Shown here piece by piece: positions 16,145 through 32,648 of a stretch of 64,000 bases of DNA. A program made the position numbers and the translations under genes. Positions within the stretch are counted from its first letter, which is position 1, and each line of letters starts with the position of its first letter. Source of the DNA: Eledone cirrhosa (lineage: Eukaryota). The stretch is from NCBI GenBank assembly GCA_964016885.1, contig OZ024740.1, positions 212,226,001-212,290,000 on the forward strand, written 5' to 3'. The notes beneath the pieces are model-generated. The model had not been told where the DNA came from, did not search any database, and saw nothing but the letters and a program-made list of their open reading frames with translations.

Positions 16145-17827
16145 TTTGGATTTAATGCTCTGAAATAGCGATATATATGTGAAGACAAACATAGAATATT
16201 CGAAAATATTCTGTATGTTTATAATAAACATTTTGAAGACCCAATCGCTATAGAATAGAATACGTCACGTATTACAATTTGAGATTCTCGATAAAAGCAA
16301 GGGAAGTAACCTACGCGTTTCATTCTTATTAGAAATCATCAGGATTACATATCCAATGCTTTTATCGAGAATGACACAGCTAGAGACTTATAGAATACTT
16401 AGCTGTGTACAGGAACTGGTTTGAAAGAGCGGTAGCTGGTCCGGCAGAAAATAGAATTTGGATTTAATGCTCTGAAATAGCGATATATATGTGAAGACAA
16501 ACATAGAATATTCGAAAATATTCTGTATGTTTATAATAAACATTTTGAAGACCCAATCGCTATAGAATAGAATACGTCACGTATTACAATTTGAGATTCT
16601 CGATAAAAGCAAGGGAAGTAACCTACGCGTTTCATTCTTATTAGAAATCATCAGGATTACATATCCAATGCTTTTATCGAGAATGACACATCTAGAGACT
16701 TATAGAATACTTAGCTGTGTACAGGAACTGGTTTGAAAGAGCGGTAGCCGGTCCGGCAGAAATTAGAATTTGGATTTAATGCTCTGAAATAGCGATATAT
16801 ATGTGAAGACAAACATAGAATATTCGAAAATATTCTGTATGTTTATAATAAACATTTTGAAGACCCAATCGCTATAGAATAGAATACGTCTTCACATATA
16901 TATCGCTATTTCAGAGCATTAAATCCAAATTCTAATTTCTGCCGAACCGGCTACCGCTCTTTCAAACCAGTTCCTGTACACAGCTAAGTATTCTATAAGT
17001 CTCTAGCTGTGTCATTCTCGATAAAAGCATTGGATATGTAATCCTGATGATTTCTAATAAGAATGAAACGCGTAGGTTACTTCCCTTGCTTTTATCGAGA
17101 ATCTCAAATTGTAATACGTGACGTATTCTATTCTAGAGCGATTGGGTCTTCAAAATGTTTATTATAAACATACAGAATATTTTCGAATATTCTATGTTTG
17201 TCTTCACATATATATCGCTATTTCAGAGCATTAAATCCAAATTCTAATTTCTGCCGGACCTGCTACCGCTCTTTCAAACCAGTTCCTGTACACAGCTAAG
17301 TATTCTATAAGTCTCTAGCTGTGTCATTCTCGATAAAAGCATTGGATATGTAATCCTGATGATTTCTAATAAGAATGAAACGCGTAGGTTACTTCCCTTG
17401 CTTTTATCGAGAATCTCAAATTGTAATACGTGACGTATTCTATTCTATAGCGATTGGGTCTTCAAAATGTTTATTATAAACATACAGAATATTTTCGAAT
17501 ATTCTATGTTTGTCTTCACATATATATCGCTATTTCAGAGCATTAAATCCAAATTCTAATTTCTGCCGGACCAGCTACCGCTCTTTCAAACCAGTTCCTG
17601 TACACAGCTAAGTATTCTATAAGTCTCTAGCTGTGTCATTCTCGATAAAAGCATTGGATATGTAATCCTGATGATTTCTAATAAGAATGAAACGCGTAGG
17701 TTACTTCCCTTGCTTTTATCGAGAATCTCAAATTGTAATACGTGACGTATTCTATTCTATAGCGATTGGGTCTTCAAAATGTTTATTATAAACATACAGA
17801 ATATTTTCGAATATTCTATGTTTGTCT
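16145..17827. repeat. Array A: 312-bp HHR-containing tandem repeat, head-to-head inverted (about 2.4 units minus, 3 units plus; junction about 16888-16890)
   Basis: CTGATGA cores at 17044, 17356 and 17668 give a period of 312. Minus-strand HHRs at 16306-16348 and 16618-16660. GTC microhomology at the inversion. (TA)n on both sides. Confidence 0.95.
17038..17080 (+). ncRNA. Type I hammerhead, family A (also 17350-17392 and 17662-17704 plus; 16306-16348 and 16618-16660 minus)
   Basis: GTAATC-CTGATGA-tTTCtaataaGAAt-GAAA-CGCG-TA-GGTTAC. Stem III is the palindrome ACGCGT with a GUA triplet. Stem I is extended by the 16-bp helix ATTCTCGATAAAAGCA/TGCTTTTATCGAGAAT. Confidence 0.9.
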
Positions 17828-18940
17828 ATACATATATATATATATAAACAAGTAAAATATAAAATATACATCGATATACATACATATACATATATATATA
17901 TATATATATATATATATACATATATATACATACATATACATACACATATACATAAACACATACATACACATACATATACATACACACACCATATAAATAC
18001 ACATACACATACACACACGCATACATATAGAGACACATACATATACACATATAAATACATAGACATATACACATATATATATAAACATACACACATACAT
18101 ATATATATACATTCACAACACACATATATATATATATATATATATATACACATATCTACACACATATATAAACACACTCATGTATATACACACATACACA
18201 TACATACCCACACATATATATATATATATACATATACACATATATATATATATATATACATATATATATATATATATATATACACACATACATACACACA
18301 TATACACATACACATATACAAAGATATATATACATACACACACACATATAATAAATATATATATATATATATATATATATATATATATATATATATATAT
18401 ATACACACACATATATATACATACATACACACACATACATACTCATACATAGACATACATATATACTCACATACATACACACATACATATACGCATATAT
18501 ACACATACATACACATCCATGTATGCGTATATACATACAAACACCACCACACGCTCACACAACTCAGACATACATAAATAAAGGGATATACATACACATA
18601 TATACATATATAAATAGAGATACATATACACATATAAATATATACACACGTACACACACACACACACATACATACACATACATATACACACGCTCACACA
18701 ACTCAGACATACATAAATAAAGGGATATACATACACATATATACATATATAAATAGAGATACATATACACATATAAATATATACACACGTACACACACAC
18801 ACACACATACATACACATACATACACACATACATATATATACACACATATATATATATATATATATATATATATATATATATATATATATATATATATAT
18901 ATATATATATACATATATATATATATACATATATATATAT

Positions 18941-31800: not shown

Positions 31801-32648
31801 GGCATAAATTCAGGCTGTTCAGTTTGTTTACAAACGAACAAAGCGGCGTTATAATAAGGCGTCCGCTAAACTGATGCGTGCATATATGTATGTGTACCTG
31901 TATGTATATGTATGTATATATGTATGTGTGTATATATATATATGTATATATATATATATATATATATATATGTATATATATGTATATATATATATATATG
32001 CATGCTACTGTACGTCTGTATACATATATGTATGTACGTATACATACATACTTACATTTAAGTAAGTGCCATACTAAGAGTGAGAAATGAAATTTCGTTT
32101 TCATTTTTTTGAACTTATCGTTTTCGGTATGCCTGACCGATTTAACTCACTCAATATGCAAATTAGGCTGCTCAGCCGTTAATTTTCATAAGGAAAGTAT
32201 ATACTTTCGAACGTTCAACTATCTGGCAGATGGGTATACGGTGCTGATGATAGCTAACAAGCTTGAAACTAGTACATCGTTCCTGTGTCAGTGTTGAACA
32301 AAAAGGTGACGTGGTTGCCTTAACACCGTATGGCATAAATTCAGGCTGTTCAGTTTGTTTACAAACGAACAAAGCGGCGTTATAATAAGGCGTCCGCTAA
32401 ACTGATGCGTGCATATATGTATGTGTACCTGTATGTATATGTATGTATATATGTATGTGTGTATATATATATATGTATATATATATATATATATATATAT
32501 ATGTATATATATGTATATATATATATATATGCATGCTACTGTACGTCTGTATACATATATGTATGTACGTATACATACATACTTACATTTAAGTAAGTGC
32601 CATACTAAGAGTGAGAAATGAAATTTCGTTTTCATTTTTTTGAACTTA
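28826..32648. repeat. Array C: 531-bp HHR-containing tandem repeat, head-to-head inverted (about 2.8 units minus, 4.4 units plus; junction 30307/30308)
   Basis: Identical ORF-track entries recur every 531 bp (one 534-bp unit). HHRs at 29106, 29637 and 30168 (minus) and 30642, 31176, 31707 and 32238 (plus). Flanked by (TA)n. Confidence 0.95.
30642..30684 (+). ncRNA. Type I hammerhead, family C (7 copies in the array)
   Basis: ACGGTG-CTGATGA-tAGCtaacaaGCTt-GAAA-CTAG-TA-CATCGT. Stem III is the palindrome ACTAGT with a GUA triplet. The extended helix is closed by GTTCAAC/GTTGAAC. Confidence 0.9.

Follow-up and report, generated by a model that had tools for sequence, protein, structure and literature searches.

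Three tandem arrays in the genome of Eledone cirrhosa, here A, B and C, are non-coding hammerhead retrozymes, each probably written when a Penelope-like element (PLE) copied one RNA circle, over many laps, into a (TA)n target. Two parts of this reading are held more firmly than the whole, as a circular monomer template appears quite probable and mobilisation of the PLE type very probable. The initial annotation had derived each array from a single event in which reverse transcriptase went round a hammerhead-processed circle several times; the genome-wide structure supports insertion in a single step by PLE machinery and leaves the circle likely. All window positions given below refer to the 64,000 nucleotides analysed (contig OZ024740.1, 212,226,001 to 212,290,000).

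Arrays, ribozymes and neighbouring elements in the window

The coordinates first given for the arrays (16145-17827, 27046-27928 and 28826-32648) and their periods (312, 317 and 531 nt) all hold. An inversion had been missed: each array consists of two inverted arms, set head to head with both 3' ends outward, which meet at about 16889 (A), 27325 (B) and 30308 (C). The inverted arm of A (16145..16890, minus strand; hammerhead cores at 16654 and 16342) holds 2.4 units of 312 nt and passes at 16145, its 'long' 3' end, into (TA)n, while the forward arm (16888..17827, plus strand) holds 3.0 units with predicted cleavage at GUA after 17074, 17386 and 17698 and has the 'short' 3' end. For B, the inverted arm (27045..27324, minus) comprises 0.9 unit of 317 nt with a 'short' 3' end and one hammerhead of U3-A8 core (predicted cleavage after 27186), and the forward arm (27325..27928, plus) comprises 1.9 units with a 'long' 3' end and predicted cleavage at GUC after 27757, its first copy bearing a stem I mismatch. 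The inverted arm of C (28826..30307, minus) contains 2.8 units of 531 nt, cores at 29673 and 29142, a stem I-mismatched one near 30204 and a 'short' 3' end; its forward arm (30308..32648, plus) contains 4.4 units, with predicted GUA cleavage after 30678, 31212, 31743 and 32274, and a 'long' 3' end that lies 60 nt past the short one.

What had been described as three distinct families is better counted as two, since A and B belong to one superfamily (~62% identical) and can be aligned over their full length (196 identical positions in ~320 columns; score 233, shuffled maximum 103). The length of 531 nt is a property of the window array, as C units elsewhere measure 419-538 nt, and the internal TA tract of C, noted as nearly invariant, varies within older arrays. 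Credible reading frames are indeed missing from all three (longest ATG ORFs of 34, 28 and 115 aa in A, B and C, the last consisting of TA repeat), and the dense folding of the monomers was confirmed by circular fold z-scores of -4.8, -4.1 and -12.9 (40 shuffles), the value for C being inflated by its TA tract. A, B and C thus show the retrozyme traits of no coding frame, a GC content below 50% and a compact fold.

The presence of one type I hammerhead per unit was corroborated by a descriptor that matched 15 times in the window vs a mean of 0.017 in 60 shuffles. Thirteen of these matches fall inside A, B and C, the other two lie behind other PLE fragments, and the copies of B and C missed by the descriptor differ by a single stem I mismatch each. 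The core of A and C is CUGAUGA, their helix II has a U-U pair at its base and their helix III is minimal and palindromic; B carries a U3-A8 core variant of a kind already reported (PMC4209133). The cut proposed for B at GUC is upheld as to the triplet, and most likely follows the second of these (after 27757), which lets stem I pair and agrees with the homologues. Across the A/B subfamilies, C3-G8 and U3-A8 cores occur together with compensatory stem changes, and this covariation of core and stem suggests that the ribozyme has been kept under selection. Rfam returned no hammerhead at gathering score in the window (its e-value matches were mostly TA-rich miRNA models), and its HH9 match on B remained sub-threshold, at 31.1 vs 52 bits. 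In a study of Xenopus, eight of nine retrozyme dimers are described as showing no cleavage (bioRxiv 10.64898/2026.07.22.740005), a point against the proposed mechanism. Further hammerhead types, including other U3-A8 cores, are numerous in ~1 Mb of (TA)n-rich flanks, and the genome holds a large undescribed set.

The arrays are part of a nested region. An older two-armed element (left arm 15248..16075, minus strand, a 98% inverted match to 32647-33504; right arm 32673..33640, plus strand) accommodates the PLE, A and C in its TA tracts, A in that of the left arm and C in that of the right, and the inverted arm of the PLE in turn hosts B. A degenerate hammerhead-like motif was seen, by eye only, near 33575 in the right arm of the older element. 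The first 39 kb of the window (282-39184) have a paralogue of ~98% identity (range ~94-99%) ~470 kb upstream, at 211,755,000-211,790,000, in which A, the PLE and B are present and plain (TA)n occupies the place of the 3.8-kb array C; C therefore arrived recently and whole. Array A of the paralogue has 4.0 units in its forward arm vs 3.0 here, and most of its inverted arm is missing.

The neighbouring PLE shares the two-arm build of the arrays. Its main arm (21348..26430, minus) starts in a 5'-truncated RT-GIY-YIG frame (26430-24522, broken near 24805) and continues through a TA-rich 3' region and a pLTR with a degenerate hammerhead to a 'long' 3' end; the inverted arm (26431..28666, plus), host of array B, carries a pLTR hammerhead at 28607-28645 and a 'short' 3' end, 67 nt short of the long one. 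The initial annotation had called this element a Naiad PLE, an attribution that we reject: the Naiad traits (N-terminal GIY-YIG, DKA and no canonical hammerhead, the last as described in PMC8557442) are not found, and the motifs present (IRWR, DKT, CxCx5C, C-terminal GIY-YIG, CxxC and CxH), together with the pLTR hammerhead, point to the Hydra clade. That clade's traits (RWK-like motif and DKT, CxCx5C linker, C-terminal GIY-YIG without CxxC, (TA)n targets, hammerhead) are all found here, the assignment being a reading of motifs against published ones. The GIY-YIG gave a weak Pfam match (residues 598-621 of 713, E=0.012), a PDB search with the protein gave no significant match, and intact 713-aa frames exist in the family. 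Two more 5'-truncated Hydra-type PLE families with hammerheads of their own occur in the window (36732-38724, plus; 11322-9221, minus), both with many copies elsewhere that have long open frames.

Several other features were observed in passing. A sequencing run of unrecorded kind contained one contig of A, 342 nt long (312 + 30, the length expected from assembly of a closed tandem or a circle), and nothing matching B, C or the PLE pLTR; as its origin is uncertain, it was set aside as evidence. A 48-bp tandem array in two inverted blocks and a 42-bp tandem array (window 45866-47768 and 53801-54840) gave no hammerhead by the descriptor. Fragments of LINE-type reverse transcriptase and endonuclease and of a Helitron helicase lie at 1169-7249, 59947-61038 and 49761-50387, and a tRNA-like stretch (541-598; Rfam 29.4 bits) and a short repeat (703-816, with several ~82% copies in the window) are together likely of SINE type.

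Anatomy of the insertions across the genome

The motif common to A and B has 21,062 exact matches in the genome and the C-type hammerhead 23,546 (reversed controls: 0). Confinement of the copies to one locus, which had been named beforehand as the contrary case, is not what we found, as the motif matches are spread genome-wide. The expectation of dispersed, circularly permuted arrays was borne out for dispersal and high copy number and failed for permutation, given that the 3' ends are fixed (with random 5' ends). We scored 75 A/B loci, most of them chosen by likeness or by variant, after setting aside seven divergent copies of greater age, three stretches in which no new array was present and the duplicate in the paralogue. 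Two arms were present at 66 of the 75, and 57 of these 66 paired a short with a long 3' end (~130 nt and ~167 nt after the cut, respectively), the others being three concordant loci (two of them three-segment insertions) and six with an odd end. TA follows 121 of the 132 arm ends, small overlaps occur at most arm-arm junctions, and the array ends merge into (TA)n, because of which a target-site duplication is unreadable. The 5' truncations are spread evenly over the unit (KS p=0.13); within 6 nt of the ribozyme cut lie 4 of 132 ends vs 5.1 expected, so there is no pile-up. Twelve of 17 additional B loci had the long and short ends, as did 11 of 21 C loci (with a 60-nt tail; six further C loci had one end, three had none and one was compound). 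In its sequence features, this combination of two arms with short and long 3' ends is the inversion-plus-tail signature of PLEs, for which an inverted 5'-truncated arm and a tail at one end have been described (PMC8557442) and whose tail, in vitro, reflects two internal start sites of reverse transcription (PMC11167929).

The same anatomy bears on the view that the units are tandem pLTRs of unseen 5'-truncated autonomous PLEs, or derive from extrachromosomal DNA circles. The sample leaves some room for it (80 scored of 76,590 PLE candidates), yet both arms of two-armed loci stop at the inversion junction, even where they reach 13 and 22 units, the sampled loci contain no PLE frame start behind A/B/C-like sequence, and the hammerhead covariation and the strand-biased variants described below need an RNA stage; we hold this origin to be very improbable. 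An autonomous PLE with a pLTR homologous to A, B or C was not found in three PLE families and ~1.07 Mb of loci, the sole link to a PLE pLTR being a 17-nt match between the hammerhead cores of A and the PLE, and the A/B tail of 30-37 nt is unlike the 67 nt of the neighbouring PLE. At one locus (L199), a PLE copy extends beyond its hammerhead and 3' UTR and re-enters the beginning of its own frame, an autonomous insertion of more than one unit.

Variation among the units of an array

Seven young multi-unit arrays were chosen by position and another 30 for one of four rare variants. The tests on young arrays draw less on the window's own A and B, which are slightly older, than on 310/311-nt relatives of A. 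Each of the seven showed one haplotype throughout (six haplotypes and two singletons among them). The 37 arrays (388 units; 30 arrays with full units in both arms) comprised 19 haplotypes, and shared variants were array-wide across both arms, with the exception of one 17-unit block duplication in the longest array; one array had 16 and 20 identical units in its arms. The 17 singletons all differ and none is common to two arrays. Indels near the ribozyme cut numbered 1 in 420 passes, which together with the uniform 5' truncations means that no template end is seen at the cut. As new variants are array-wide, they point to a bottleneck of one unit, from which they re-emerge as long concatemers, as rolling reverse transcription predicts. 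The idea that two rare variants were private to one array was dropped after a genome-wide test, in which they proved to mark lineages (349 and 217 units) containing long clonal arrays that could serve as linear masters; overall, the tested variants mark lineages of 217-855 units with long arrays among them.

In the sense strand, array-wide variants comprised 17 A>G vs 5 T>C, and singletons 30 vs 34 (Fisher p=0.015), a lean that was found post hoc and with variant polarity taken from the majority. One A>G site was gained or lost on at least four backgrounds; in the 11 of 37 arrays where it is present, it is array-wide and never mosaic, and one array has three A>G changes. Paired regions contain 10 of the 17 A>G sites (background 43-62%), no clear excess. 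The lean is a hint of A-to-I RNA editing of the circle; G-U-tolerant selection or recombination could also yield it.

With age the picture changes. Family polymorphisms remain array-wide in the older arrays of A and B (e.g., 32 of 33 vs 11.4 in shuffles), while 134 and 81 singletons, which are strand-symmetric, and 28 and 11 partly shared variants have accumulated. A modified template base was considered for the partly shared variants and dropped, as these arise with age and the youngest arrays have none; the idea that the second arm is a fold-back copy of the first was likewise dropped, since the arms often outrun each other and variants are not mirrored. For C, the closest unit came from the same locus in 28 of 32 units, and two older C arrays are heterogeneous. 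Long arms reach 22, 13, 17 or more, and 33 units (loci L091, L086, L068/L284 and L253). In the 22-unit array of L091, a variant confined to one arm has reached 19 of 23 units there; block duplications occur in L087 and L253. Judging by unit gain and loss and the block duplications, long arrays appear to turn over after insertion. The difference in unit number, the block duplication, the partly shared variants and the mixed C arrays were counted against our reading, as change after insertion.

Such turnover is what would be asked of a single inserted unit that grew locally by unequal crossover and homogenisation, in the manner of a satellite, a route sketched in the Xenopus preprint (bioRxiv 10.64898/2026.07.22.740005), and unit gain and loss, block duplications and the sweep through 19 of 23 units in one arm do happen. 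It is, however, hard to square with the 36 of 66 two-armed A/B loci that are multi-unit in both inverted arms, with the one haplotype that the arms share, with youngest arrays that are the most uniform and often long (private changes being found in the older ones) or with the empty paralogue and its recent arrival of C, and we give local growth hardly any credence. Reverse transcription round a single monomer circle accounts for the array-wide haplotypes better than growth as a satellite does.

A PLE might instead have copied long, uncleaved, linear read-through RNA of clonal arrays, with circles absent or mere by-products. This also predicts neither a 5' pile-up nor a scar at the cut, long clonal arrays exist in every lineage tested, and uncleaved RNA was the dominant substrate of the Anolis PLE in vitro, for which the hammerhead was dispensable (PMC11167929). 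Copying of this kind cannot, however, lengthen arrays or fix a new variant in all units, and it is opposed by the 19 haplotypes in 37 arrays, by the lack of any singleton common to arrays and by a recurrent A>G site that is never mosaic, so that we consider it unlikely. Less likely still is viroid-like RNA-to-RNA replication of circles, with the clonal multimeric RNAs then reverse-transcribed by a PLE. It would give clonal arrays, the many haplotypes and the sense A>G lean point to change at an RNA stage, and the monomer folds are compact; against it, the descriptor found no antisense hammerhead on any unit, whereas viroid-like replicons often carry ribozymes in both polarities, and the extra step is needless where rolling reverse transcription accounts for the arrays.

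Proposed mechanism and relation to known systems

In the rolling copying of one circle that we favour, an array would be transcribed and its RNA would cleave itself to monomers, for A and C likely as dimers, their helix III being a short palindrome. The monomer would be ligated to a circle and bound by a Hydra-clade PLE protein, which may prime at two internal sites ~30-37 nt (A/B) or 60 nt (C) apart; rolling reverse transcription would proceed from both strands of a cut (TA)n target, and the two cDNA ends would be joined by microhomology. A more specific version, which we put forward tentatively, is that a PLE dimer sets two reverse transcriptases on one ribozyme-made circle, each starting from its own fixed site, and that both go round it up to twenty times, with A-to-I edits of the circle copied into every unit.

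On their sequence traits, A, B and C belong to the metazoan non-LTR retrozymes, for which monomer circles were shown in coral, mussel and axolotl (PMC7229834); in our case the circles are proposed from genomic DNA. They resemble these retrozymes in being tandem non-coding repeats with GC below 50%, one type I hammerhead and a compact fold, and the axolotl motifs in particular in the short palindromic helix III and the U-U pair at the base of helix II. They differ in the two inverted arms, the fixed two-site 3' ends, the (TA)n targets and the clonal arrays (the words 'inverted' and 'microsatellite' are absent from the main text of PMC7229834), and C units of 419-538 nt exceed the 150-450 bp range given there. 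The Xenopus preprint (bioRxiv 10.64898/2026.07.22.740005) presents retrozymes as non-autonomous derivatives of PLE pLTRs, in families of 51-972 bp. Its link to PLEs is drawn from co-occurrence and pLTR homology, whereas ours comes from insertion anatomy, and it ascribes tandems to local amplification, whereas the arrays here look born as multimers; the words 'tail' and 'identical' are absent from the text searched.

Among autonomous elements, the Hydra-clade PLEs as described in PMC8557442 share the (TA)n targets, the hammerheads, the inverted 5'-truncated arm and the tail at one end (PMC3846280 likewise reports inverted pLTRs and tails for autonomous PLEs); unlike them, the arrays are non-coding and can run to 20 or more units, and the tails of C and the neighbouring PLE (60-67 nt) exceed the 30-40 bp described. 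In the Anolis Poseidon PLE (PMC11167929), both target strands are likewise cut and extended, from two internal starts and with a predicted dimer, but the templates are linear and the start site is reported not to differ between strands, whereas the arms of our arrays almost always use different start sites (57 loci against 3, among those in which both ends could be assigned). MRC1 and other Chlamys elements (PMC8557442) are, like the arrays, non-autonomous passengers of PLEs with multicopy head-to-tail insertions; they are described as mostly without canonical hammerheads and as resembling the 3' end of an autonomous partner, such as was not found here. Multi-lap reverse transcription of a circle by PLEs is a published hypothesis (PMC7229834, PMC4209133, PMC7761336). 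Our literature search, with subscription papers and supplements outside its scope, yielded no description of two-armed or clonal retrozyme arrays, or of ADAR marks in them.

For PLEs and retrozymes, the idea that RNA circles are copied into chromosomes dates from 2014 and is unproven in the literature examined, and the 2026 preprint leans to local satellite growth; the arrays constitute genomic evidence that separates these models and seem to lend unusually clear support to circle copying. They also define a system open to testing, made up of an RNA of 310 nt, a pair of priming sites, (TA)n as the target and PLE families whose frames are intact. If the more specific version held, an array would be a DNA record of one RNA molecule, with its A-to-I edits in every unit, and the same process of more than one lap would explain the pLTRs, tails and inversions of autonomous PLEs. 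The arrays thus bear on how these three features form and on the origin of ribozyme satellites.
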